A stretch of 64,000 bases of DNA from Candidatus Latescibacterota bacterium (GCA_965116885.1 OZ220741.1:5152001-5216000); one strand, 5' to 3'; shown: positions 48,954 through 61,838, counted from the first letter of the stretch. Translations and numbers: made by a program. Notes: a model not told the origin generated them from the sequence alone.

Positions 48954-49274
48954 AAGGTTTTGCCTGTCATCCCAATCATCCTCTGGCTCTTTTCTCCCTG
49001 AACCAGGGAACATTTCTTTCACCATACCACTCATCCATCGCTCAAAATATACACTAACGCCTGTCTATTCCACCTCTGCTTCAACAGGCAATCCACAAAT
49101 TCAAGTTGTGAACAACCGCATAATACAGCATATTGAAGGCATAATGAGGTGCCTGAACTTCTTTTTTTCCTCTTTTATCACTCAATTCTGTGATAATTGG
49201 CTCGATATTTGCTTGAGTTCTGACAGTTGCGTTAGTCCAAAATACGCCCCACCTTCAGAACAAAGGAAACAGAA

Positions 49275-49658
49275 GTGTCAGACGACCACAATTCGATTAA
49301 AGAATATAAAGGCATTCTGGGACAGGTCACTTCACCCCTGATATTTTTTGCTCTGGCACTTCTGGTCATTGAAGGAATCATTGGAATTACGGTTGTTAAA
49401 TCAAAACTCGACGCTATACAGCAATTCTACATGATTCTTGTTATGGCCTTTCTATTTCTATCTGTTGTCGGTCTCGTTGCATGGATTACTGTGAAATATC
49501 CGTTGAACTTAATGGATAAAGTTGATGAAAATTTGAAACGCAATGAATTGATGGAAACGCTCCTTGGCAGTGACATGTTCAAAGACGCTGTTATCGACAT
49601 CGTATCGAATATTGTCCAGGAGCCACAATCAAAGGAAGAAAAAAATGGATCAAAATGA
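49275..49658 (+). CDS. Two-TM membrane protein, unknown function
   Basis: Two hydrophobic helices; AAGGA RBS; AT-rich. Confidence 0.65.
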   Translation: MSDDHNSIKEYKGILGQVTSPLIFFALALLVIEGIIGITVVKSKLDAIQQFYMILVMAFLFLSVVGLVAWITVKYPLNLMDKVDENLKRNELMETLLGSDMFKDAVIDIVSNIVQEPQSKEEKNGSK

Positions 49659-50157: not shown

Positions 50158-50434
50158 CTAAAAGGACCGGGCAACTCGAAAACCGATAAATCGGTATTAT
50201 CTGTTTCGCCTGTTCCGCCTTATTCAACAACGCCAGCGCCTCCTTGTAGAACGTGCCCTTCTCCCCTGATGTGGCTAAATACTTCTTCACCGCATCAACC
50301 GCGGTCTGGAACAAGCCTGTTGAAAAGGCAACCTGTGCATACTGGAAGTGGAATTCGTGCGGTAATGTAAGACTATGCTCTTTTTGCAGCACAAGGATCT
50401 TTTCTACCAGGTTGAGAGCATCTATATAGTCTTT
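50158..50434 (-). pseudogene. Remnant of a helical-domain + FGE/CLec-fold gene with the lectin domain deleted
   Basis: KDYIDALNLVEKIL...ALALLNKAEQAKQIIP joined out of frame to FIGFRVARSF*; no native start. Confidence 0.7.
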
Positions 50435-50436
50435 GC

Positions 50437-53103
50437 TTATTTACCGAAAGCATCGACAAAAATCAGAAAATCGCCAATCCCAATTGTGCCATCGCCATCC
50501 AGATCAAACCGCGCATCATATCCCGCATCGCCACGACTTAATCCGAATCGGGTTGCAAACAGCAGAAAATCGCTAATGCCAACTGTCCCATCGCCATCAA
50601 AATCAGCCGTTGGCGACGCCACCGGAACACCAGTGACCACAGCATCCACGCCCACATCTGCCGCTGTTAGAGGACCTCCGCCTTTCTCCTGAACTGGAAA
50701 CTCGACGCAACCAACTGTTTTGCGCTCGCCGCGAGAATTTCCTAAGATATCGGTTGTTATATCTGGATAATGCCCCTCGGCATTGCCAATCAAACCACTG
50801 GACTCTGCTGGCGCAACAACCCCATTGGGCAGATACTCCACATCGATCCGCTCAACCTTTATCCCATCCCGAGCGGGCATACCCAAATCCCCATCCGTCA
50901 CATTCCCCTCCCATCGCCAATCCACCGGCTCATCGCCCAGCACCAGCCGCACAGTCCTATCGGACAACACAAAAGCATTATTCGCAATCACGCAATCTTT
51001 AGGCACCATGCCATTGGGATACAGAATGTGATTTAGACCCACATCCATCGCCGGACTACATCCCACAAACGTATTAAACGCAACTATCGCGCGCTCCACC
51101 CGCACATAGTGATCATCCGGTAACCCATCATTCATACCCACGCCAAACGCATTGAGCGAGTGGAACAAATTATTCACAACAACCTGATCTGTCCCCTGCA
51201 AACGCACACCGCCCGCTCGGTGTTCGCCCTCGCCAAAAAAGAAATTCTCAGACACCACATTGCCATCTCCGTGCCTAAGCTCTAGCGCGCCGCGGCAATC
51301 GCGAAACGTATTCCTGCGAAGCATATTGCCATTGGACTTCACAGAAATAATCTCCGCCTCCCCATTACAACGCTCAAAAAGATTGTACTCAATCACCGTC
51401 TCACAATCGCCCGGCTCTGGGTCCCAGGGATTTCCCTCTGTAATGAGTTGAAGCGTCTCGTACCCATTGCTCTCCTTCCCTTCTGGAACATCGACGAAGT
51501 GGTTGTGGTGAACATGGTGTCTCTCGCCCTGATTCCGAACGTAAATCTGCATCAACTGGCAGCCGCCCATCTTCTCGCGGTTATTGGTCTTATTCTCAAA
51601 TCGGCAGCGATCAATCTCAATCTCCCGGCTCTCTGCACGGACGCGTATCCACGTGCCCACCTGCACATCTGTCATTACACAGCGACTTATGCGACAACCT
51701 CTCCCCCGAATTTCTATACTGCCCTTCTCCTCAAAGCGAAGACCTACGAGATTAATGTAATCTCCCTCTATAGATATGGGACCCTGGATAACGGCTTTCC
51801 CGATGTTCTTCGCCTGAATTGTGATGGGATAGGCCGCGCTCCCCTTTGCTACCAACTCGCACACATCGCCATCATATACTCCGTCATCTAAGGTGATTGT
51901 GTCGCCCGCCCGCGCGTCAGACACCCGGTGTTCAAGATCGGATAATGTCATAATTCCTGTGCGAAAGGTCAACGGTGGCACCGACGCATGCCCTATGAGT
52001 AATACCTCGACCGTATTTTCTTTTGATGATCCCAATGTCAAGGTTGTCTGTGCCCAACCTTTAGTATTGGTTGTGCCGGTGGTGGTACTGAGTGAGCCAC
52101 CACCTGAGGTGACGGTAAAAGACACCGGCACACCAGCAAATGCTTCATCCCTCTGATCCCACACTTCCACAACAAAGGGGGCCGCCAAAGCCGCACCGGG
52201 CGTGCCATCCTGCCCTTGCCCTGAGACTATGGCCAACCTCGCTGGCGTGCGAGAATCGAAACTTACGCGGACCCCGCGGCCCTGAAGAGCCGGAATGTGC
52301 GTATTAAGAGAGGGATAGGTCAGAGGGTTACGTAGCAAATTGACCTCGTCATCATTTCCCAGTCCCGTGTTTACTACCAATGGCGAGATGTCCAGGATGT
52401 TGTTTATGTGAAGCTCCAGAGATGTCAGACCAGTTAAGTTAGAAAGCGGCGACACATCTGAAATACTGTTGCCCCATAGCGATAGATGTATCAGATCGAT
52501 TAAGCCCGCGAGGTGTGAAAGATCTGACATATTGTTCCGGCTAATATCCAGAGATCTCAGACGGGTTAAGTTAGAAAGCGGCGACACATCCGAGATTGAG
52601 TTGAGCTCAAGATCCAGAAATGTCAGACGGGTTAAGTTGGAAAGTGGAGATATATCCGAGATTGCGTTGCTCTGGATATCCAGTTCTGTCAGATGGGTTA
52701 AGTTAGAAAGCGGAGATATATCCGAGATACTGTTGCCTGCAAGATTTAGCTTTGTCAGGCTGGTTAAGCTCGACAGTGGCGAGAGGTTGGAGATGTCGTT
52801 GCTGTTGATATAACCACCCTCTCCCCACGCGCCACCGAGATAAAGATGGGTCAATCCGGTTGCATACTCAAGTCCTACCAGGTTGTTGATATTCGTATCC
52901 CGCGCGTCAATGCGCGTCAATGTCGCCATTTCCGCCCGAGTAATCGTCGCACCGCTTGCCTTGTCCAACGAATCCTCAATGACAGCCCTCAGGTTCACGT
53001 CGGGGATGGTTGTGACCTGGTTCTGCGCGCTGCTTTCGCCGCAGACGGCAAAGAAAATTAAAAGTATGGTAAAGACAGAGGATATATAACGGCAAAAGAT
53101 CAT
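50437..53103 (-). CDS. Secreted internalin-type LRR + Ig-like + PL6 (chondroitinase B/alginate lyase-like) + EF-hand/dockerin-like protein
   Basis: 22-aa NSISDISPLSNLT repeats; Ig strand TNTKGWAQTTLTLG; GEAEIISVKS and RHG PL6 motifs; two DxDGDG repeats. Confidence 0.85.
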   Translation of the reverse strand: MIFCRYISSVFTILLIFFAVCGESSAQNQVTTIPDVNLRAVIEDSLDKASGATITRAEMATLTRIDARDTNINNLVGLEYATGLTHLYLGGAWGEGGYINSNDISNLSPLSSLTSLTKLNLAGNSISDISPLSNLTHLTELDIQSNAISDISPLSNLTRLTFLDLELNSISDVSPLSNLTRLRSLDISRNNMSDLSHLAGLIDLIHLSLWGNSISDVSPLSNLTGLTSLELHINNILDISPLVVNTGLGNDDEVNLLRNPLTYPSLNTHIPALQGRGVRVSFDSRTPARLAIVSGQGQDGTPGAALAAPFVVEVWDQRDEAFAGVPVSFTVTSGGGSLSTTTGTTNTKGWAQTTLTLGSSKENTVEVLLIGHASVPPLTFRTGIMTLSDLEHRVSDARAGDTITLDDGVYDGDVCELVAKGSAAYPITIQAKNIGKAVIQGPISIEGDYINLVGLRFEEKGSIEIRGRGCRISRCVMTDVQVGTWIRVRAESREIEIDRCRFENKTNNREKMGGCQLMQIYVRNQGERHHVHHNHFVDVPEGKESNGYETLQLITEGNPWDPEPGDCETVIEYNLFERCNGEAEIISVKSNGNMLRRNTFRDCRGALELRHGDGNVVSENFFFGEGEHRAGGVRLQGTDQVVVNNLFHSLNAFGVGMNDGLPDDHYVRVERAIVAFNTFVGCSPAMDVGLNHILYPNGMVPKDCVIANNAFVLSDRTVRLVLGDEPVDWRWEGNVTDGDLGMPARDGIKVERIDVEYLPNGVVAPAESSGLIGNAEGHYPDITTDILGNSRGERKTVGCVEFPVQEKGGGPLTAADVGVDAVVTGVPVASPTADFDGDGTVGISDFLLFATRFGLSRGDAGYDARFDLDGDGTIGIGDFLIFVDAFGK

Positions 53104-53187
53104 AAATTTTCTTGCTCACTTTCTGACGACTTTGTGCAAGATCTCCGGCTCATTAAAGTTACCGCGGACGAAGTCGAGGCGCAGGAG

Positions 53188-54024
53188 CTAAAAAGACCGG
53201 GCAACTCGAAAACCGTAGGTGACGTCCCGGTAACTGGGGGGTTTCCCGTAGCGAAGCGCCGAACGCAAGAACCACGGAGAGTCGTCCCACGATCCACCAC
53301 GAAATACGCGCTCGCAGTAGCCATCCCCTGCCCCTGACTCCCTCGCAGAACCGTCTGAAGGTGCGCCTTCATAGCTTCCTTCATAGCAATCTTGAACCCA
53401 CTCCCGCACATTCCCGTGCATATCGTGAACGCCCCAAGCATTGGCTGAGAATGATCCCACTGGCGCTGTCTTCTCACCATCCCACTGACTGCCGCAACCT
53501 CTGCAATTGGCACGATTGACGCCTATGCTGTCTCCCCAGCTATACTTCGTCGTTGAACCAGCACGCGCCACATACTCCCATTCCGCTTCACTCAATAAAC
53601 GATACGTTTTATCCGTCCGGGCTGACAACCAACTAACATAAGACTGCACATCTTCCCAACTCACATTCATCACAGGACGATTCTCACGGTCCCAGCTATT
53701 ATCTGGAATATCCGGAAGATAGTTTCCACAACCTCCTGCATCCAGACAGGCATACCATTCGTCAAAGGTCACCTCATATACACCCACTGCAAACCGGTAA
53801 TCTATACGCACTCTGCGCATCGGTCTTTCACTATACCTACCCCTTTCACGCGCGGGTGACCCCATCCTGAACGATCCCGATGGCACGACAACCATCTTTG
53901 GACATTCATCACAATCTTGAAAAGTTTCTCCGGGTGAAGGCGTACTATCCCCAGTGTTCTGTTGTGACCATAGAGGAAGGCTCAGAAGAATGAATACACC
54001 TGTACAAATACAGTAACGATACAT
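53188..54024 (-). CDS. Secreted FGE-sulfatase/SUMF1 (C-type-lectin fold) protein
   Basis: Signal peptide; RLLSEAEWEY, DMHGNVREW, RGGSW...GFRVARSF. Confidence 0.9.
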   Translation of the reverse strand: MYRYCICTGVFILLSLPLWSQQNTGDSTPSPGETFQDCDECPKMVVVPSGSFRMGSPARERGRYSERPMRRVRIDYRFAVGVYEVTFDEWYACLDAGGCGNYLPDIPDNSWDRENRPVMNVSWEDVQSYVSWLSARTDKTYRLLSEAEWEYVARAGSTTKYSWGDSIGVNRANCRGCGSQWDGEKTAPVGSFSANAWGVHDMHGNVREWVQDCYEGSYEGAPSDGSARESGAGDGYCERVFRGGSWDDSPWFLRSALRYGKPPSYRDVTYGFRVARSF

Positions 54025-54117
54025 CTTGTCTCTCCTTTCATTCACTCCAAGAAATTCTGCACACCTGCTTATCCTTCATTCCTTCATTATAGAGTTTTCT
54101 GTTTTTGAGACTCACGG

Positions 54118-55092
54118 TTAGAAAGCCAGCGACAAACCGGCTGCAAAATTACACTTATATGATAATATTTGCATCGGTATGATCCCGCCAAGAGTGATGT
54201 TGATACCAGCATTGCCCACCTCAAACCACCGCGTCAATCCCAGAAAGAGGTCATCGAACGGTTGGCTTCCCAACTGGAATCCTATGGATACATACGGACA
54301 TGGCAGGCACTCTTTCTTGCATAGCGAATCCAACTGGAGATTCACGAAGGTAAACGGCGACGGAACCAGTCTCAATTTATCCCGAAACTCGGACTCCTGT
54401 TGGTTCGGTTTCGCGGCGTATTTTACCACGAGACCATGCGATACGGTATATCGGGGTGGAGGATTTTCAATTTGAAATAACCATGGCCCTGACGAGGCCA
54501 CGACCCTACCCTTCGGGTTCTTTTTTTTATTAAAAGTCACTACAAAGGAACCGCCAGCCACCAGATCGTCTTTCACGGGCAATATCTGTAAACAGGTTCC
54601 ATTAACTTTGGATACAGTAGGCTGCCTCGGACCCAGTTCAGCTTTTTGGGATTTAGACACATTTAGTTTTGTCAGATTTTCCAGGATTATCTTCAGTATG
54701 TTGAGCCCCCTGGCCTTACCCATCACGGTGTAATGAATATCCGCAGCAGTAGTGTCACATCGCGCTGTAGAGTCGCATTGCCATTTCATCATTAATATCA
54801 CGTTGTCAGTTGGTTTAATATCAAATTCAGGTCTCTTTATTTCCCCCTTCTTGTCAGATTTGATCTTGACGTCCTTGTTGGACGTACGTGTGCCATAGAC
54901 CCGAGCATAGAGACAATCTGTCTGCCCCTTACCGGCGTCATACATGATTTCTACTACACGGTTTTCAGCCGCCTCTAATCCCGAATCCAAGCAAAGCACC
55001 AGAAATACGAATCCGACTGTCAACCACCAAGATTTCATATCCATTCTACTTGTAGGGAAAAGTCCTCGAACATACCGCCTAAAAAAAGTCAT
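54118..55092 (-). CDS. Secreted/outer-membrane hypothetical protein
   Basis: Signal-like WWLTVGFVFLVLCLDSGLEA, beta-rich, terminal Phe; start uncertain. Confidence 0.6.
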   Translation of the reverse strand: MTFFRRYVRGLFPTSRMDMKSWWLTVGFVFLVLCLDSGLEAAENRVVEIMYDAGKGQTDCLYARVYGTRTSNKDVKIKSDKKGEIKRPEFDIKPTDNVILMMKWQCDSTARCDTTAADIHYTVMGKARGLNILKIILENLTKLNVSKSQKAELGPRQPTVSKVNGTCLQILPVKDDLVAGGSFVVTFNKKKNPKGRVVASSGPWLFQIENPPPRYTVSHGLVVKYAAKPNQQESEFRDKLRLVPSPFTFVNLQLDSLCKKECLPCPYVSIGFQLGSQPFDDLFLGLTRWFEVGNAGINITLGGIIPMQILSYKCNFAAGLSLAF

Positions 55093-55197
55093 AAAACTTC
55101 CTCCCAACCTCCAAAAAACCGCAAAACTCCACAATCCCTCATACCCTCCAAAAACACCACTCCCTTCTCCCCCACAAAAAATGTAAAGAATTAGGAG

Positions 55198-56040
55198 CTA
55201 AAAAGACCGGGCAACTCGAAAGCCGGCGATAAGACCGCCAGCAGGGTAGTAACTCTCGATGCTAACCGAAGCACCGGTGCCGGTGGGGAGGTAACTGAGA
55301 TCGGTGAGAGACCTCACTACTTGGCGCGCGTGGCGATTCGCAGAACGCACGTGCCTCGGAGCACTGAAATACCCACCACCACGCAAAACGCGAAACTCGC
55401 AGTATCCAGTCAGCCAAGCAGTACCATCTGTAGGCGCACCCTCATAACTATCGTTCCAACAATCTTGAACCCACTCCAGCACATTACCATGCATGTCGTA
55501 CAGACCCCAACCATTGGCCTTGAACGAGCCCACACGCGCCGTTCTCGAACCACCCCACAGACTGGCGCATCCATCACAATTGGCGCGGTTGCGACCTATG
55601 TCGTTACCCCAGCTATACTTTGTCGTTGTACCTGCACGCGCCGCATACTCCCACTCCGCCTCACTCGGCAAACGATAGTGCTCCCTTGTCTGATCCGATA
55701 GCCATTCTGTGTACGCTATCGCGTCATACCACGAAACGAATACCGGACGCCGACCACGACCCCAGCCGAAATCGTATGCCTGCTCGCGTCCCGTCGCATC
55801 CGTGAAAGCATCATACTCCTCGAATGTCACCTCGTACTTCGACATTGCAAATGAGTCTATCTTCACTTCCTGCACAGGCTTCTCATTATCATTGCAGTCT
55901 ATACCTGACACGCAACCCATCTGAAAACTACCCGACGGAATCACCACCATCTCAGGCATTGGAAAACTCGGTTGGGAATACACTGAATACACCGTCCAGA
56001 AACTCATCACAACTGCCAATACAACAAATATGCGCCACAT
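55198..56040 (-). CDS. Secreted FGE-sulfatase/SUMF1 (C-type-lectin fold) protein
   Basis: Signal peptide; RLPSEAEWEY, DMHGNVLEW, RGGG...GFRVARSF with about 24 extra aa in the C-terminal loop. Confidence 0.9.
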   Translation of the reverse strand: MWRIFVVLAVVMSFWTVYSVYSQPSFPMPEMVVIPSGSFQMGCVSGIDCNDNEKPVQEVKIDSFAMSKYEVTFEEYDAFTDATGREQAYDFGWGRGRRPVFVSWYDAIAYTEWLSDQTREHYRLPSEAEWEYAARAGTTTKYSWGNDIGRNRANCDGCASLWGGSRTARVGSFKANGWGLYDMHGNVLEWVQDCWNDSYEGAPTDGTAWLTGYCEFRVLRGGGYFSAPRHVRSANRHARQVVRSLTDLSYLPTGTGASVSIESYYPAGGLIAGFRVARSF

Positions 56041-56098
56041 AATGAACCCCTTTCTTGTAGGCTTAAAAACAGATAGAGCTTACGACATCATTGGGACC

Positions 56099-57280
56099 TC
56101 ACCTTGCTGTTTCCACGATGATTCGCGCCTTCGATCCGGCACCACCCCGATGACGCCATACTTGCGTTTCTGTGTTCTCCCCAGTAACGCGGATCTCACC
56201 CGTGTTTTCGTCTCGGTAGCTACAGTCTCCCTTGTATCCCGTGCCGTTGAGGGCTGTCAATTCCACAGCATAACTTTCTCCTGCCCACACATCCAGCGTG
56301 TAGCAGTCCCAGTCGTTGTCAATTTCTCCGGAAAATATGCTTCTGCCATCTATATCAACGCGGATCTTATCGCCATCTTCGCACTCGTGGTCTCGCACGC
56401 AAATCTTCAAGGTTCCCGTCGAGCCTCTGATTTTCATCGGAAAGTCCTGGATGGCCTGATCACTCTCACTACCCTGATCATTGGCGACGGCCAGGCCGTC
56501 GTAGGCATAAATCTTATCGTAATGATCGTCCACCACCCACACGGTTGTCCCATCCGACCAGATCCCTGTGGGAGAATAGATGCCAGCGAGCTTATTGAAG
56601 TCCTTCGGGTCACGTGCTCTGGACCTCATGTTGTAGGCATACATTGTATCGTCCCAGTCGTCCACCACCCACATGGTTGTCCCGTCCGACCAGATACCCG
56701 TATCCCTGGCATACGCTGAGAAGGGTAGATCGAGGTCCTTGTCAGGGTCACGTGCTCTGGTCCTCAGGTTGTAGGCATAAATCTTATCTTCAGCACTGGC
56801 GAGTACCCACATAGTCGTCCCGTCCGACCAGATACCCGTAGAATTGGCATTTACCGCGATGTGTAGCTCGAAGTCCTTGTCAGGGTCACGGGCTTTAGAT
56901 CTCATGTCGTAGGCATAAATCTTGTAACGGTAGTCCACCACCCACATGGTCGTCCCGTCCGACCAGATATCTTCAGGGGAATCGTTGGCTGCTTCGAGCC
57001 TATTGAAGTCCTTATCAGGGTCACGGGCTTTGGATCTCAGGTTGTAGGCATAAATCTTATCTTCAAAACTGTCGAGCACCCACATGGTCGTTCCATCCGA
57101 CCAGATCCCTTCAGGGAATTTGTTTCCTGCAGCTTCCAGCGTATTGAAGTCCCTGTCTGGAGCACGGGTCAAGTCTTCAGCCAAAGCCGGACCTATCAAC
57201 ACAAACACCGAACAAGCTGAAAAAAACAAGGCAAGCACAAACAGGCGTAACCCAAGATACCTGCGACCATATGGCAACAT
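56099..57280 (-). CDS. Secreted NHL-like repeat beta-propeller protein with C-terminal beta-sandwich
   Basis: Five ~46-aa repeats RDPDKDF...IWSDGTTMWV...KIYAY. Confidence 0.85.
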   Translation of the reverse strand: MLPYGRRYLGLRLFVLALFFSACSVFVLIGPALAEDLTRAPDRDFNTLEAAGNKFPEGIWSDGTTMWVLDSFEDKIYAYNLRSKARDPDKDFNRLEAANDSPEDIWSDGTTMWVVDYRYKIYAYDMRSKARDPDKDFELHIAVNANSTGIWSDGTTMWVLASAEDKIYAYNLRTRARDPDKDLDLPFSAYARDTGIWSDGTTMWVVDDWDDTMYAYNMRSRARDPKDFNKLAGIYSPTGIWSDGTTVWVVDDHYDKIYAYDGLAVANDQGSESDQAIQDFPMKIRGSTGTLKICVRDHECEDGDKIRVDIDGRSIFSGEIDNDWDCYTLDVWAGESYAVELTALNGTGYKGDCSYRDENTGEIRVTGENTETQVWRHRGGAGSKARIIVETAR

Positions 57281-57356
57281 AATCCTCTCCTCTCATGGTA
57301 TTGTTTGACCATCTTCCCGCTCATCGCTCTGGCGGGACTTAAAATTAGTTTATAGA

Positions 57357-57373
57357 TGCAAAAAGCGTGCCAA
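57357..57373 (-). promoter_or_regulatory. Sigma-54 -24/-12 promoter
   Basis: Minus strand reads TTGGCACGCTTTTTGCA, matching TGGCAC-N5-TTGC. Confidence 0.88.
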
Positions 57374-57430
57374 CATGAGAACTGTTTCCAGACACATACT
57401 CGTAAAGGGTTGTTTTATATAAAGAAAAAA

Positions 57431-57596
57431 CCAATCTGACTATATAATACCGCCTCCAAATAGTCGGATTGGCTCTTGTATAAGACTTTATATGGCCTTA
57501 TACAAGACGTACTATGGTCTCAAGACTATAGTACGTCCTTTTTTCTTTGCAAGTGTGAGATTCAATATTATGTTCTTCCTTGCAAGCGTGAGATTC
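57431..57596. promoter_or_regulatory. Candidate enhancer/operator repeats
   Basis: Three adjacent inverted repeats and a 17-bp direct repeat TTGCAAGYGTGAGATTC (57547, 57580). Confidence 0.6.
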
Positions 57597-57639
57597 CATT
57601 TATAAATCCATTTTTTACCCTTATCACAAGGTTCTTTCT

Positions 57640-60600
57640 ATGACCAAACCACTTGACCGCACAGGCATCTGGCGGACTTATACTATGGCCGATGGCCTGG
57701 CCGGGATGCGCGTTGAACATATCGTTGAGGATAGCGAAGGGTATCTCTGGTTCGCCACATGGGGCAACGGTGTTAGTCGCTTCGATGGGGACGAGTTTCA
57801 GAATTTTACGCGACGCGACGGTCTTATTAATGATCATACTTATTTTCTTTTACAAGACAGTCAGAAGCGGTTGTGGTTCAGTACAGAAAATGGTGTATGC
57901 TGGTACAGCGGGACAGTGTTTCACCATTTGGAGGACGAGGGGATCGCAGGCCGTGCTGTGCACAGCATTTACGAAGACAGTGAGGGACGTGTATGGTTAG
58001 GGGGCACGAGAACTCTGGGATATTACGATGGCACTGTGTACCACGATCTGATTCCACGCTACCTGCAAGACTACGAACAGCCGCCTTCTCCTCAGTGGTC
58101 CAACCTGTGTTGGGGTATTACCCAGGATATGGAAGGTCGCCTGTGGTTTGGTTTTGACTACCCCATTCGCTACGATGGTCAATCCTTTCACCGCTATGAT
58201 GAGAAAGAGGGATTTCCTCAAGATGGAAACGTCTATTCTGTGGGCAGGGACCCTGCTGGCAAGGTGTGGATCGGTCGGCTTGGACATCGAGAAGGACTCT
58301 GGTGCTATGCCGATGGTACTTTCCTGTATGTGCAGGTGGATTTGGGTGGCGGATTACGTAGAATTCAGTGCGACGGTACAGGTCGGATGTGGTTCAGTAC
58401 TTCTGAGGGAGTACTCTACCAGGACGGTGAAGAATTCAACAGATTTACCCCTGCCGATGGCTTACCTCATCCCGCGGTCAAATCTGTGTTTCAAGATCGC
58501 GATCATCAGTATTGGTTCGCCACCTGGGGTGGCGTCGTGCTCTACGATACACAGACCAGTGTTTTCGATCTCAGTAAGGAACTCTCTTCAAACGTGAGTG
58601 AGGTCTCGCAACTCGTGCAAGACCGGCGAGGCGATATATGGGTAGGGTGTGTCGTTTACCTTCTCAATCCCTTGATCAAAAGCGTCTTTCGCTTCGATGG
58701 AGAGCACTTTGCATTCGCAGGCACCGAGTATGACTTTGATATCAACAACTGTTTTGCTATCTACGAGGACTTCGAGGGGTATCTGTGGTTTGGCGGCCGC
58801 AACGGGCTGTTCCGCTACGATGGGCAGAAAGTTGAAAAAATAGAAACAATCGCAGGTTTAGACGGAAAAAGTGTTAGTGCAATCGCCCAAGACTCGCAAG
58901 GAGGATTCCTTTTTGGTCATTGGGAGAACAGCACAGGGAAAAAAAGAGAAGATATTTTTGCCAGCGCATTGAAGCTTATTTACCAGCGAGGGGAGGAGTT
59001 CCAGACCATTTTTGTAGAAAATGAAAAGAAAGATCCTTTTAGCAGCATCGGTACTGTGATTGCCGGGCGCAACAACGAGATCTATTTTCATTTGACCTGC
59101 CACAATTTCTCAGTTGGCGGCAGAGGCCTGGCGCGGTGGCATCCCGAAGATGGTATTAAATTTTATGGCATTGAAGATGGTCTGATAGACCACCAGATCA
59201 CGGACCTGCTCTTAGACCGCAATGGCAACCTGTGGGTCGCTACCCCGTGCGGTCTCAGTTGCTTTGATGGCAACGACTTTCACAACTTCACAACAGCAGA
59301 TGGTTTGCCGAGTGATTGCATCCGTTGTTTGCTCGAAGATCGGCAAGGTCACCTTTGGATCGGTACAGACGGGGGTGTGATTCACTACGATGGCCAGTAT
59401 TTCCAGACGATCAACTCACCGCACATAGGATCGGTTTCCCAGATACTCGAAGACCGCGATGGAGCCTTCTGGCTTGGCACTACCCTGGGATCTATCATAC
59501 GCTATCGTCAGCGTCAAACTCTGCCCCAGATTCGCCTGCTTTCTGTGATTGCCGATCAGGTTTATGAGAACCTGCAGGAAGGTATTGTATCTAAGACAGA
59601 CCAGAATGTGATCTTCGAGTATAAAGGCATGAGTTTTTCTACCCATCCCCGCGACATGCTCTACATCTATCGCTTGAAAGGATACGACTCCGACTGGCAA
59701 CCAGCGACTCGAAAAATGCGGGCACATTACCGGGACTTGCCACCGGGAGATTACACTTTTCAGGTCAGGGCGATAGATCGCGACCTCAATTATTCGGAGA
59801 TGACACAGGTGCAACTCTCGGTAGAGCCTGACCCGCGTATCAAAGCATTGACGGACGTCATCAACCGTCGAGAAAGCCAGAAGTTTATCGGGCATAGCGC
59901 GGCACTGCGCCAGTTTCAAGTCAATCTTGAAAAAATTGCACCCACTGATATAACCGTGCTAATTCTGGGCGAGACGGGTGTGGGCAAGGGACTGGCTGCG
60001 CGGACACTACACGCGCTGAGTGCCAATGGCGATGGTCCTTTTATAGAAGTCAGTTGCGGCGCATTGCCTACAGCGTTGATCGATAGCGAACTGTTTGGTC
60101 ACGAGAGAGGGGCTTTTACCAGCGCAGTTTCTCACAGGCTGGGCAGGGTGGAACTGGCAGAGGATGGCACGCTCTTTTTAGATGAAGTCGGCGATATGGC
60201 TGTGGAAACGCAAGTCAAGCTGTTGCGCTTGCTGGAAGAGGGAACGTTTGAGCGGATTGGGAGCAACGAGACGCGGATGGCAAAGACGCGTATTGTGGCA
60301 GCGACAAATCGCGACTTAAAGGAGATGGTCAGCACAGGTGATTTTCGGGAGGATCTCTATTACCGCCTCAATGCCTTTCTGATGTATTTGCCGCCGCTTC
60401 GCGAGCGCAAGGAGGATATACCGGAGTTGGCCGAGTATTTTAAGGATCGCCTATCATCGCATATAGGCAAGCAAATAGATTCCTTGACGCCAGAAATTAT
60501 CGAGGTATTGCAAAGCTACGATTGGCCTGGAAATGTGCGTGAATTAGAGCATACCATACAGCGAGCAGTCATCTTGTGTCCTCATTCTCAAATCGGAGTG

Positions 60601-60843
60601 GAGGATCTGGGCCTGTATGGTTCTCGAATCGAAGATATGGGTCAGCGCACCTTATCCGCTTCTCAAGACCGCCCAATCGTGCCCTTGAATGAATTTGAAC
60701 GCCGCTACATCCTCGACGTGCTCAAAGCCACCAAATATCAGATAAAGGGTCCTGAAGGCGCGGCGACATTGCTGGGAGTACCGCCTTCTACCCTGTACGG
60801 CAAAATGAAAAGACTGGGTATCAAAAATCAAAAACCAAAGTAG
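57640..60843 (+). CDS. Sigma-54-dependent activator: Reg_prop beta-propellers + Y_Y_Y + AAA+ + Fis-type HTH
   Basis: Repeated EDxxGxLWF blades; YIYRLKGYD...YRDLPPGDYTFQVRA; GETGVGK, GAFTSA, LFLDE, FREDLYYRL, WPGNVREL. Confidence 0.93.
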   Translation: MTKPLDRTGIWRTYTMADGLAGMRVEHIVEDSEGYLWFATWGNGVSRFDGDEFQNFTRRDGLINDHTYFLLQDSQKRLWFSTENGVCWYSGTVFHHLEDEGIAGRAVHSIYEDSEGRVWLGGTRTLGYYDGTVYHDLIPRYLQDYEQPPSPQWSNLCWGITQDMEGRLWFGFDYPIRYDGQSFHRYDEKEGFPQDGNVYSVGRDPAGKVWIGRLGHREGLWCYADGTFLYVQVDLGGGLRRIQCDGTGRMWFSTSEGVLYQDGEEFNRFTPADGLPHPAVKSVFQDRDHQYWFATWGGVVLYDTQTSVFDLSKELSSNVSEVSQLVQDRRGDIWVGCVVYLLNPLIKSVFRFDGEHFAFAGTEYDFDINNCFAIYEDFEGYLWFGGRNGLFRYDGQKVEKIETIAGLDGKSVSAIAQDSQGGFLFGHWENSTGKKREDIFASALKLIYQRGEEFQTIFVENEKKDPFSSIGTVIAGRNNEIYFHLTCHNFSVGGRGLARWHPEDGIKFYGIEDGLIDHQITDLLLDRNGNLWVATPCGLSCFDGNDFHNFTTADGLPSDCIRCLLEDRQGHLWIGTDGGVIHYDGQYFQTINSPHIGSVSQILEDRDGAFWLGTTLGSIIRYRQRQTLPQIRLLSVIADQVYENLQEGIVSKTDQNVIFEYKGMSFSTHPRDMLYIYRLKGYDSDWQPATRKMRAHYRDLPPGDYTFQVRAIDRDLNYSEMTQVQLSVEPDPRIKALTDVINRRESQKFIGHSAALRQFQVNLEKIAPTDITVLILGETGVGKGLAARTLHALSANGDGPFIEVSCGALPTALIDSELFGHERGAFTSAVSHRLGRVELAEDGTLFLDEVGDMAVETQVKLLRLLEEGTFERIGSNETRMAKTRIVAATNRDLKEMVSTGDFREDLYYRLNAFLMYLPPLRERKEDIPELAEYFKDRLSSHIGKQIDSLTPEIIEVLQSYDWPGNVRELEHTIQRAVILCPHSQIGVEDLGLYGSRIEDMGQRTLSASQDRPIVPLNEFERRYILDVLKATKYQIKGPEGAATLLGVPPSTLYGKMKRLGIKNQKPK

Positions 60844-60844
60844 A

Positions 60845-61801
60845 TTATACATTATCGCGAATCTTTTCCCAAATAGTAGCCGCAGCGTGGACATCTTGAA
60901 TCGCCAGACCGCTCGAATACGCAATACATCCCTGTCCTCGCAAATGTTCCAAATGTCCCAGTGCCGCATGTCCGATATTCAGTATCTCATCCTCCTCACC
61001 CTTTACCCAGCGAGGCGTCTCATCTCTCTGGCACAACGCGAGAAACTCGCCCGACTTCAGCACCTGCTCACCGTGATCGGGCACCACAAATCGCCGCGTC
61101 AACAATCCCGAATCCAATTGTGTGGAACGCCCATCGCCCCCAATCACAGAAATATGCACATGGCTTTCCACATCGAAGAGAATCGGCTCAGGCGTTGGCA
61201 CAGAAGTAAAAACCGCATCTGCCCCATCAATACAGGTCTCAATATCCGCAACCACCTCCAGATCACAGGAAATATCTCCTCCAACCTCTGCTGCATAAGC
61301 CTCACGCTTCTCGGCCGTCCTGCTCGTTACACGTATAGTCTCTGGCGCCAGAGCCACATCAATACACCTCCCCAATGCCTGTGCAATGCGCCCCGTCCCC
61401 AGAATCGCCGCCGTGCGTACCGGCGACTTCGCCAAATACTTCGCGCCCAACGCACCCGCCGCGCCCGTACGCATATTGGTAATACGCTCGGCATCAAACG
61501 AAATGCGATCACCCCTCCGCACATCCTCCAATTCGATCACAGCGGTTCTCGAACCCAGCCGCCCCATCTTGACATCCGAACGCTCTTCGATAACCTTTTG
61601 TCCCATAAATTTCCCCTTCCACCAGCCCGGCATCACCAGACGAAAAAGATCCATCTCTCCCTCGCGCGAAACCTCTTCTTTGCGCAGCGGACTGACCATT
61701 TTTCCAAGACCATAAAGTTGAAACGCCTCATCGCAACTCTCGACAAAATCCCGCGTCGTCATCACCGAAGCGATTTGTTCATCTGAAATATACTGTCTCA
61801 T
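60845..61801 (-). CDS. Ornithine cyclodeaminase/mu-crystallin family protein
   Basis: ITNMRTGAAG, LGTGRIA, SSGLAIQD. Confidence 0.87.
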   Translation of the reverse strand: MRQYISDEQIASVMTTRDFVESCDEAFQLYGLGKMVSPLRKEEVSREGEMDLFRLVMPGWWKGKFMGQKVIEERSDVKMGRLGSRTAVIELEDVRRGDRISFDAERITNMRTGAAGALGAKYLAKSPVRTAAILGTGRIAQALGRCIDVALAPETIRVTSRTAEKREAYAAEVGGDISCDLEVVADIETCIDGADAVFTSVPTPEPILFDVESHVHISVIGGDGRSTQLDSGLLTRRFVVPDHGEQVLKSGEFLALCQRDETPRWVKGEEDEILNIGHAALGHLEHLRGQGCIAYSSGLAIQDVHAAATIWEKIRDNV

Positions 61802-61838
61802 GTAATACCTCACTTAAGAATGGGCAAACCCCACCCAA

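Follow-up and report, generated by a model that had tools for sequence, protein, structure and literature searches.

Two kinds of described regulators come closest to the protein considered here. One is the hybrid two-component system (HTCS) of Bacteroides, whose periplasmic sensor combines Reg_prop propeller repeats with a Y_Y_Y domain; a passage in the review PMC8534201 names BT4663 among sensors with a Y_Y_Y domain and calls its mode of signalling scissor-like. The other is the sigma-54 activator of the XylR/DmpR type. A review-type analysis, PMC3162934, argues that sigma-54 controls mainly the bacterial exterior, and passages in PMC12993501 list ANK, LRR, NHL, SEL1, TPR, WD40, and FN3 proteins in metagenome-assembled genomes (MAGs) of sponge Latescibacterota. 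Here we describe a locus at positions 50158 to 60843 of a 64,000-nucleotide stretch of Candidatus Latescibacterota DNA (GCA_965116885.1, OZ220741.1:5152001-5216000; the whole 64-kb stretch is termed the window), in which an activator gene, par1, faces five genes, g1 to g5, across a sigma-54 promoter. We believe, with a probability of about 0.7, that par1 is a cytoplasmic one-component enhancer-binding switch in which a sensor of the kind found in Bacteroides periplasmic glycan sensors is joined directly to an AAA+ domain. By sequence comparison, the locus is one of a multi-copy Latescibacterota family, each copy carrying a predicted private palindromic enhancer matched to its helix-turn-helix (HTH) tail. 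The repertoire of secreted repeat proteins in a sponge-type lineage seems to be under the control of this family.

The activator gene is as follows.

57640 to 60843, plus strand: par1 (P0001), an open reading frame (ORF) of 1,067 residues with Pfam domains

Pfam placed Reg_prop matches (E = 4e-52), Y_Y_Y at residues 669 to 722 (8.7e-13), Sigma54_activat (PF00158) at residues 750 to 913 (7.2e-63) with AAA_lid_14 behind it, and a Fis-type HTH_8 at residues 1016 to 1059 at the C terminus. A linker of about 25 residues separates Y_Y_Y from the AAA+ domain, in which Walker A reads GETGVGKG (777 to 784) and Walker B reads LFLDE (845 to 849). The canonical sigma-54 contact loop is GAFTGA. In par1 it is GAFTSA (824 to 829), with serine in the fifth position and the other five residues kept, and this variant is almost invariant among 30 aligned family members. 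These domains and motifs confirm the Reg_prop/Y_Y_Y and sigma-54 AAA+ fusion that a preceding sequence-only reading of the window had described. Reading the sensor by eye, we counted 14 blade motifs (G-x-L-W-F/I-G/A-T; positions about 37, 79, 119, 169, 210, 251, 292, 334, 383, 423, 482, 532, 573, and 610), which fits two seven-bladed Reg_prop propellers over residues 1 to about 650. Residues 1 to 745 matched solved structures 4a2l (2e-37), 3v9f (2.1e-36), and 3va6/3ott (2.5e-22), and the only solved relatives of this region were those four Bacteroides HTCS periplasmic-domain sequences. The AAA+ part matched NtrC, FleQ, ZraR, and NifA chains (1e-71 to 1e-74), and HisKA, HATPase, receiver, and AraC-type HTH domains were absent from the par1 Pfam matches. 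An ESM Atlas search with the activator returned one Latescibacterota cluster of the same architecture. Close homologues in the databases carry the label of Gemmatimonadetes MAGs, as given by those who deposited them. par1 ends at 60843, and a convergent gene of the ornithine-cyclodeaminase family (60845 to 61813, minus strand) ends 1 nt away, with no room for a terminator between the two.

The absence of a signal peptide and of a hydrophobic helix between the modules, as read earlier, was borne out by hydropathy. The top Kyte-Doolittle 19-residue mean in par1 was 1.40, at residues 332 to 350 within a blade, and by the same measure there was no hydrophobic segment at the polar N terminus or between residues 722 and 750, after Y_Y_Y. 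Since the stop-to-stop frame is only 1,083 residues, with room for just 16 more, a hidden N-terminal extension is impossible. None of 121 family members (the query and 120 matches at 70% identity or more) had a window at or above 1.8. The same script, applied to distant SpoIIE-linked relatives as a positive control, found N-terminal and post-Y_Y_Y segments at 1.9 to 2.4. Hydropathy is a coarse test, as the signal region of the cargo protein g4 also scores only 1.40. Because the AAA+ domain and the HTH must act on DNA, the whole par1 chain, soluble as judged by hydropathy, should be cytoplasmic.

We then placed the sensor in its wider context by searching residues 1 to 745 against 1.84 billion representatives, which gave 17,734 matches at 1e-30, and classified the best 150 of these with exemplar domains. 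The outputs were kinase or kinase-receiver in 73 (33 without a membrane-like segment), SpoIIE in 27 (4 without), sigma-54 AAA+ in 20 (19 without), and other in 30 (21 without). Thus, 77 of the best 150 relatives lack a membrane-like segment. In correction of the earlier reading, the soluble Reg_prop/Y_Y_Y module is not unique to par1. A Pfam scan of 30 proteins picked from the best 150 found sigma-54 outputs in 13; membrane segments were found in 0 of 20 colinear single-stretch relatives. Named members of the sigma-54-output clusters were Latescibacterota.

The intergenic region between par1 and g1 holds an ordered set of elements.

57357 to 57372, minus strand: sigma-54 -24/-12 promoter TGGCACGCTTTTTGCA, a zero-mismatch TGGCAC-N5-TTGCA site
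57400 to 57429, no strand assigned: AT-rich block CGTAAAGGGTTGTTTTATATAAAGAAAAAA, conserved in the divergent intergenic alignment
57429 to 57476, minus strand: conserved hairpin with arms CCAATCTGACTAT and ATAGTCGGATTGG, then a U-run on the minus strand
57482 to 57498, no strand assigned: type-A site 1 (candidate enhancer), AAGAC-N7-GGCCT at this locus, where most relatives have GGTCT
57504 to 57520, no strand assigned: type-A site 2 (candidate enhancer), AAGAC-N7-GGTCT
57547 to 57566, plus strand: box 1, TTGCAAGTGTGAGATTCAAT, 20 nt, conserved in 14 divergent-type loci
57580 to 57599, plus strand: box 2, TTGCAAGCGTGAGATTCCAT, 20 nt, a second copy ahead of the activator start

A divergent -24/-12 promoter had been read as near consensus; it proved to be a perfect site and the sole zero-mismatch TGGCAC-N5-TTGCW site in the window. 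With up to two mismatches allowed, the window had 43 sites against 37.3 ± 5.8 in shuffles, i.e., chance level. The promoter lies 267 nt from the par1 ATG, divergent from it, and about 77 nt ahead of the g1 ATG. A one-mismatch sigma-54-like site, TGGCTCGATATTTGCT (49198 to 49213, plus strand), was also seen 62 nt ahead of a 127-residue ORF (49275 to 49658), in a stretch of low GC (41 to 43%).

We aligned 14 divergent intergenic regions and found the same order in each: promoter, AT-rich block (GTTGTTTT), hairpin, tandem AAGAC-N7-GGTC(T) sites, two 20-nt boxes, and activator start. All of these elements were conserved, and the promoter was invariant. The type-A site pair starts 127 to 147 bp upstream of the promoter element, a usual enhancer distance. 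The conserved hairpin (GAGCCAATCTGACTAT ... ATAGTCGGATTGGCTC), with its T-run on the cargo strand, folds at -18.7 kcal/mol (z = -3.0) and shows one compensatory change (G-C to A-T) in one of the aligned loci (L036; L-numbers denote extracted loci). It is terminator-like and sits between the enhancer sites and the promoter. We considered that it might be a mere leftover terminator; it is conserved even at divergent loci where no gene ends there. The AT-rich block is possibly a DNA-bending or IHF-like site. Box 2 may serve par1 as a promoter or operator, and we also considered the two boxes as Bacteroidota-type -33/-7 promoters. At this locus only, enhancer site 2 forms the left arm of a second hairpin (57506 to 57537, plus strand), which pairs perfectly over 14 bp, has a T-run behind it, and lies directly upstream of par1's own 5' region.

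The source genome is a single contig of 5.56 Mb (51% GC; its coordinates are given as G000:C1). It has a single rpoN (Sigma54_DBD, 203.8 bits), eight full-length activator paralogues (68 to 100% identity; 57 to 82% over the 740-residue sensor region), and 17 other sigma-54 AAA+ matches. The strict motif TGGCA[CT]-N5-TTGC[AT] occurs 53 times genome-wide, where base composition predicts about 10.6. These sites and the 25 AAA+ activator matches make the sigma-54 regulon look large. Seven strict sites precede proteins of about 780 to 830 residues whose N termini resemble the MacB/FtsX permease adjoining par6, and two others precede proteins with what we take to be PspA-like N termini. Six of the eight paralogues have a strict site within 300 nt of a gene end.

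par1: divergent motif (par1 to par4: 270 to 285 nt upstream, opposite strand), facing g1 to g5
par2, G000:C1 4404149-4407370: divergent motif in the same range, facing a 954-residue LRR protein and a PKD/FGE protein
par3: divergent motif in the same range, facing an Fn3-LRR protein
par4, G000:C1 4416839-4420057: divergent motif in the same range, facing a 905-residue LRR protein
par5, G000:C1 2989615-2992815: motif 168 nt downstream, co-oriented, ahead of a 124-residue Imm_superinfect-family membrane protein and then par7
par6, G000:C1 5509002-5512172: motif 210 nt downstream, co-oriented, ahead of a g1-like gene and two FGE-fold genes
par8: no adjacent promoter; overlaps an upstream aminotransferase gene

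The whole 5.56 Mb contains only five tandem type-A pairs, all of them upstream of a strict sigma-54 site, and four of the five are at par1 to par4. The fifth is an orphan module (G000:C1 about 4431591-4431720; region about 4431069-4431720) in which enhancer, hairpin, and sigma-54 promoter face a 137-residue ORF with little beyond an HTH-like tail; this protein could be a competitor for type-A sites. Pieces of another sigma-54 activator lie on its divergent side. At G000:C1 2985707-2992815, the par5-side promoter, the small Imm_superinfect-family membrane protein, and a second propeller activator have the arrangement of an activator cascade. A few kilobases from par4, a 694-residue ankyrin-repeat protein (L028 17090-19174, minus strand; G000:C1 about 4423928-4426012) is another eukaryotic-like protein.

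We identified 34 loci in other genomes by protein search, from records labelled Candidatus Latescibacterota and one labelled Rhodothermaceae. Strict sites were divergent in 10, downstream in 19, and on both sides in 3, and 26 of the 34 had at least one. Allowing one mismatch, L042, L043, and L051 also have a site, together with palindromes, bringing the count to 29 of 34. L052 and L058 retain parts of the module only; it is missing from L059, L065 (where the gene is truncated), and L066. The expectation that relatives of par1 adjoin TGGCAC-N5-TTGC promoters with differing cargoes of secreted repeat proteins was upheld, with such a promoter beside 6 of 8 copies here and 26 of 34 elsewhere. The divergent arrangement expected with it holds for par1 to par4 and for 10 of the 34; in 19 of the 34, and at par5 and par6, the promoter is instead downstream and co-oriented. 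Among 151 sampled genomes of the phylum, 65 had activator matches at E ≤ 1e-100, concentrated in three families of one class. The activator is usually multi-copy in these genomes, and the copy numbers are lower bounds because five candidates per genome were scored.

Behind the promoters of the foreign loci we scanned 38 ORFs at a family cut-off of 1e-8. These comprised LRR proteins (5), FGE-fold proteins (5), Fn3/cadherin/Calx-beta/PKD giants (3), WD40 proteins (2), a PL8 lyase (first gene of L050), a TonB-receptor N terminus (first gene of L062), and two further sigma-54 activators, one of them sensor-less. Seven more had other matches (DUF4189, AhpC, IS605 OrfB, FRG, Imm_superinfect, a DUF1800 piece, and HAD), and 12 had no family, two of these being g1 homologues. 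Genes behind family promoters are mostly secreted-type repeat proteins or matrix enzymes. Activator-to-activator or membrane-protein-then-activator arrangements were seen at L041, L049, L061, L033, and L037; the L033 promoter product is the sensor-less protein, an AAA+-HTH chain of 340 residues.

While inspecting the downstream-type loci, we found two copies of a locus-specific 14- to 16-bp palindrome right after the activator stop codon, with a third often in the hairpin loop. The order here is sites, hairpin, AT-rich block, promoter, and cargo, and the hairpin doubles as the activator's terminator. Strong 16-mer palindromes numbered 11 in 16 downstream-type regions, compared to 0.63 ± 0.81 in 200 shuffles (maximum 4). 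Besides type A, the palindromes and the loci that carry them included the following.

TCC(G/A)TATATGGA: par6 and L060
CACGATATATGGTG: par5, L041, and L049
GACGTTATAACGTC: L050 and L062
GGGCGAAT...GCCC: L039 and L056
GGACCATATAAGGCCC: L037 and L047
GGATCATATATGATC: L045

The palindrome type followed the HTH tail. We typed a set of 35 activators by eye and only then counted. When neighbours were ranked by the HTH tail (last 57 residues), the nearest one had the same type in 31 of 32 cases; ranking by the AAA+ domain gave 21 of 32, by propeller 2 together with Y_Y_Y 20 of 32, and by propeller 1 17 of 32. Because the loci are related to each other, these counts overstate independence. Type A accounts for 16 of the 35 activators, so the background rate is high. 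A quick whole-protein tree disagreed with palindrome type.

Identity is unevenly spread along the genes. par5 and par6 are 97 to 100% identical over nucleotides of about 151 to 1500 and about 75 to 87% elsewhere, despite their different enhancers. par2 and par4 are 93 to 99% identical from about nucleotide 1950 on and 66 to 77% before, and par1 and L034 are 100% identical in the tail and 90% in the AAA+ domain but only 69 to 71% in the sensor. From these alignments, the paralogues are mosaics made by gene conversion. A g1-FGE-FGE(-g3) cassette lies behind enhancers of types A (par1, L036), B (par6, L060), and H (L045), and type-A enhancers also drive LRR and other cargo. Mosaic genes and a cassette behind several enhancer types show that sensors, output/enhancer pairs, and cargo have been re-assorted.

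These data suggest a model for the locus. The par1 HTH would bind the two tandem AAGAC-N7-GGTCT sites upstream of the -24/-12 element. An intracellular ligand on the propellers would then stop the regulatory module from restraining the AAA+ domain, which would form a ring and loop over the AT-rich bend to the sigma-54 holoenzyme waiting at TGGCAC-N5-TTGCA. ATP use would open the promoter, so that g1 to g5 could be transcribed and their products presumably exported. PL6 and PL8 lyases and a TonB receptor in the cargo, along with the kinship of the sensor to glycan sensors, suggest a glycan-derived cue. The domain types and the sponge-type lineage point to a possible role in host interaction. 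That par1 is a cytoplasmic one-component sensor, as was first read, is supported by the lack of a membrane segment, by rpoN, and by the promoter association.

Several points weigh against this model. The contact loop is GAFTSA and not the canonical GAFTGA, and the predicted propeller and Y_Y_Y fold is drawn from sequence matches. par8 has no adjacent promoter even at one mismatch, and neither have 5 of the 34 foreign loci. The covariation counts carry the two limits given with them, by-eye typing and relatedness. Signal peptides of the cargo were judged by hydropathy, and the proposed g1 to g5 operon follows from co-orientation and the absence of strong terminators. Lastly, par1 to par4 share the same enhancer sequence and an orphan module exists, so that g1 to g5 may not be under the one-to-one control of par1.

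The last point leads to the alternative that we take most seriously, although we hold it to be somewhat less probable than not: par1 to par4, alone or in mixed rings, bind the same sites, so that their sensors feed all five type-A promoters and the neighbouring gene is no special target. The type-A pair is near-identical at all five modules here and across 14 loci of other genomes, the par1 to par4 HTH tails are closely similar, and the 3' halves of par2 and par4 are 93 to 99% identical, all as such a network would have it. However, the other paralogue groups have private palindromes that track their HTH tails, small tail differences exist even within type A (GKMKRL versus GKINRL), and activator and module have stayed adjacent at 29 of the 34 loci, which speaks for selection to keep them paired in cis.

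A different possibility is that the propeller module is a protein-interaction part or scaffold, or is always permissive, with control exerted mainly through the amount of activator, including by cascades. Beta-propellers often bind proteins, and some family promoters do drive activators (par5 to the 124-residue protein to par7; L041; L061), at L033 one without any sensor. We nevertheless find this unlikely: the module's only solved relatives are ligand-binding sensors of Bacteroides HTCS, the same soluble module occurs on kinase and phosphatase outputs, as is typical of an input domain, and its 740 residues are kept at 57 to 82% identity among paralogues. It is very improbable that the intergenic block is simply a repetitive or mobile, hairpin-bearing DNA element whose likeness to a promoter with enhancers is without regulatory meaning. 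Among paralogues the nucleotide sequence of the block is highly conserved, it is found in two orientations relative to the activator, and an IS605-type transposase occupies one cargo position (L044), as a mobile element might explain. Yet the -24 GG and -12 GC are invariant, the block always faces a downstream ORF 20 to 300 nt off, the palindromes covary with the HTH tail, and the element occurs only beside this activator family or its remnants. We therefore retain the sigma-54 switch as the preferred reading of the locus.

The genes that the promoter faces are listed below.

56099 to 57280, minus strand: g1, 393 residues; signal-like N terminus, five WSDGTTMWV-type repeats, Cys-rich C-terminal beta-sandwich
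55198 to 56040, minus strand: g2, 280 residues; signal-like N terminus, FGE-sulfatase (C-type-lectin-like) fold, PF03781 at 6.8e-54
54118 to 55134, minus strand: g3, 338 residues from a TTG; no family
53188 to 54045, minus strand: g4, 285 residues; FGE-sulfatase fold, PF03781 at 1.5e-52
50437 to 53103, minus strand: g5, 888 residues; signal-like N terminus, internalin-type LRR, Big_1, PL6 lyase beta-helix, two dockerin/EF-hand-like repeats
50164 to 50184, minus strand: a seven-residue match, FRVARSF, then a stop, to the g2 and g4 C termini (E about 0.9)

All five genes are co-oriented and, as the first reading had it, each has a hydrophobic, signal-like N-terminal stretch. Gaps between them are 58 to 156 nt, and no strong terminators were found among them. 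The two CLec-fold genes and the LRR-Ig-PL6 gene of that reading were also recovered, as g2 and g4 and as g5. The CLec remnant was not: the seven-residue match is too short to serve as evidence. Pfam found no TonB receptor or SusC-SusD pair among g1 to g5, and a lyase domain in g5 only. One sponge metatranscriptome run contained 5% of the sampled sequence words, and six runs of unrecorded kind contained 21 to 91%; we did not use the small RNA share as evidence.

The g1 ATG is preceded by a GGAGAGG ribosome-binding site. Its predicted model (pLDDT 73.8) shows a five-repeat propeller and a beta-sandwich, with generic propellers as best fold matches. The NHL-like label first given to g1 is only approximate, and its Pfam matches were all sub-threshold. 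NCBIfam has no family for g1, which belongs to an unnamed, common family (1,728 matches), often fused to cadherin or Fn3 domains. The Cys-rich beta-sandwich of g1 also occurs as a stand-alone 145-residue ORF behind another strict sigma-54 site (G000:C1 5501502, plus strand) and in a further copy near par2 (G000:C1 4398703-4399065).

For g3, a start at ATG 55041 (307 residues), with the hydrophobic stretch behind it, is more likely than the TTG; neither Pfam nor NCBIfam has a family for it, and ESM Atlas gave unnamed clusters only, with recognition below the usual level. g4 is 50% identical to g2. For both, the best NCBIfam model was PvdO, far under its cut-off, and no cysteine was visible, by eye and unaligned, in the C-terminal RGG(S/G)(W/Y) segment, where the catalytic cysteines of true FGE presumably lie. 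In g5, Pfam matched LRR_4 (5.1e-28), Big_1 (6.4e-09), and Chondroitinas_B (PF14592, 2.5e-46), with weak dockerin/EF-hand matches, and the putative PL6 lyase helix matched the structures of alginate lyase 8bwk (2.6e-36) and chondroitinase B 1dbg (7.6e-15). The dockerin/EF-hand-like motif DFDGDG-x-VG-x-x-DFL stands twice at the g5 C terminus (50437 to 50700). It stands once, right after the signal region, in the LRR cargo of par2, par3, and par4 (N termini at G000:C1 1098838, 4403867, and 4416556), and may be a shared anchoring or calcium-binding module.

Taken together, the family offers a concrete, transferable regulatory unit of sensor-activator, private enhancer, and sigma-54 promoter, and it bears on how uncultured sponge symbionts control LRR, Fn3, cadherin, WD40, and sulfatase-fold proteins. 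Its private palindromes and mosaic genes provide natural material for following the re-assortment of enhancer specificity and sensor identity. The secreted cargo fits the theme of sigma-54 and the bacterial exterior. A broader proposal is speculative, and we doubt it more than we favor it: sponge Latescibacterota would control their secreted eukaryotic-like and matrix-directed proteins with a set of recombining parts, namely cytoplasmic sensors of the glycan type, private enhancers, gene-converted sensors, mobile cargo cassettes, and activator cascades, by which imported host cues, e.g., sulfated glycan fragments, could be quickly rewired to effector sets.

How does this family compare to known systems? 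Sponge symbionts have eukaryotic-like proteins (LRR, ANK, Fn3, cadherin, WD40, and NHL), and the cargo here falls into the domain classes that passages of PMC12993501 describe for sponge-associated Latescibacterota MAGs; those passages contain no mention of sigma, regulator, sulfatase, or chondroitin, and the link to a dedicated sigma-54 activator family comes from the present analysis. A full-text literature search, with subscription journals outside its reach, turned up no paper pairing Reg_prop or "two component regulator propeller" with sigma-54 or enhancer binding protein, and among the papers listed for NtrC, sigma-54, or enhancer-binding proteins none mentioned Latescibacter*.

The Bacteroides HTCS (BT4663, 4a2l/4a2m; 3v9f; BT4673, 3ott/3va6) have the same Reg_prop and Y_Y_Y sensor as par1, and both couple it to a DNA-binding output in one polypeptide. 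Unlike them, par1 lacks a signal or membrane segment, HisKA/HATPase domains, a receiver, and an HTH of the AraC type; it would sense in the cytoplasm and act by ATP-driven sigma-54 activation instead of a phosphorelay, and no SusC/SusD accompanies its cargo. Soluble Reg_prop/Y_Y_Y kinase or SpoIIE proteins resemble par1 in their colinear sensor (35 to 51% identity) and in having no membrane segment but carry other output domains. The propeller/Y_Y_Y module, familiar as a periplasmic glycan sensor in gut Bacteroides, is thus also widespread as a soluble input, and in par1 it is coupled to a motor that opens promoters by the use of ATP.

Activators of the XylR/DmpR, NifA, NorR, and FhlA type share with par1 the sigma-54 AAA+ domain, Walker A and B, a GAFT-type loop, the lid, and a Fis-type HTH. 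They also lack a receiver domain, as par1 does, and par1, like them, lies next to a -24/-12 promoter with upstream repeated sites. Their input is GAF, V4R, PAS, or ACT, whereas that of par1 is a double seven-bladed propeller plus Y_Y_Y of about 740 residues. The par1 family further differs in its GAFTSA loop, its multiple copies, its private enhancer for each copy, and its mosaic combinations of sensor and output. What is new is a sigma-54 activator with a soluble double-propeller input, in a recombining multi-copy family.

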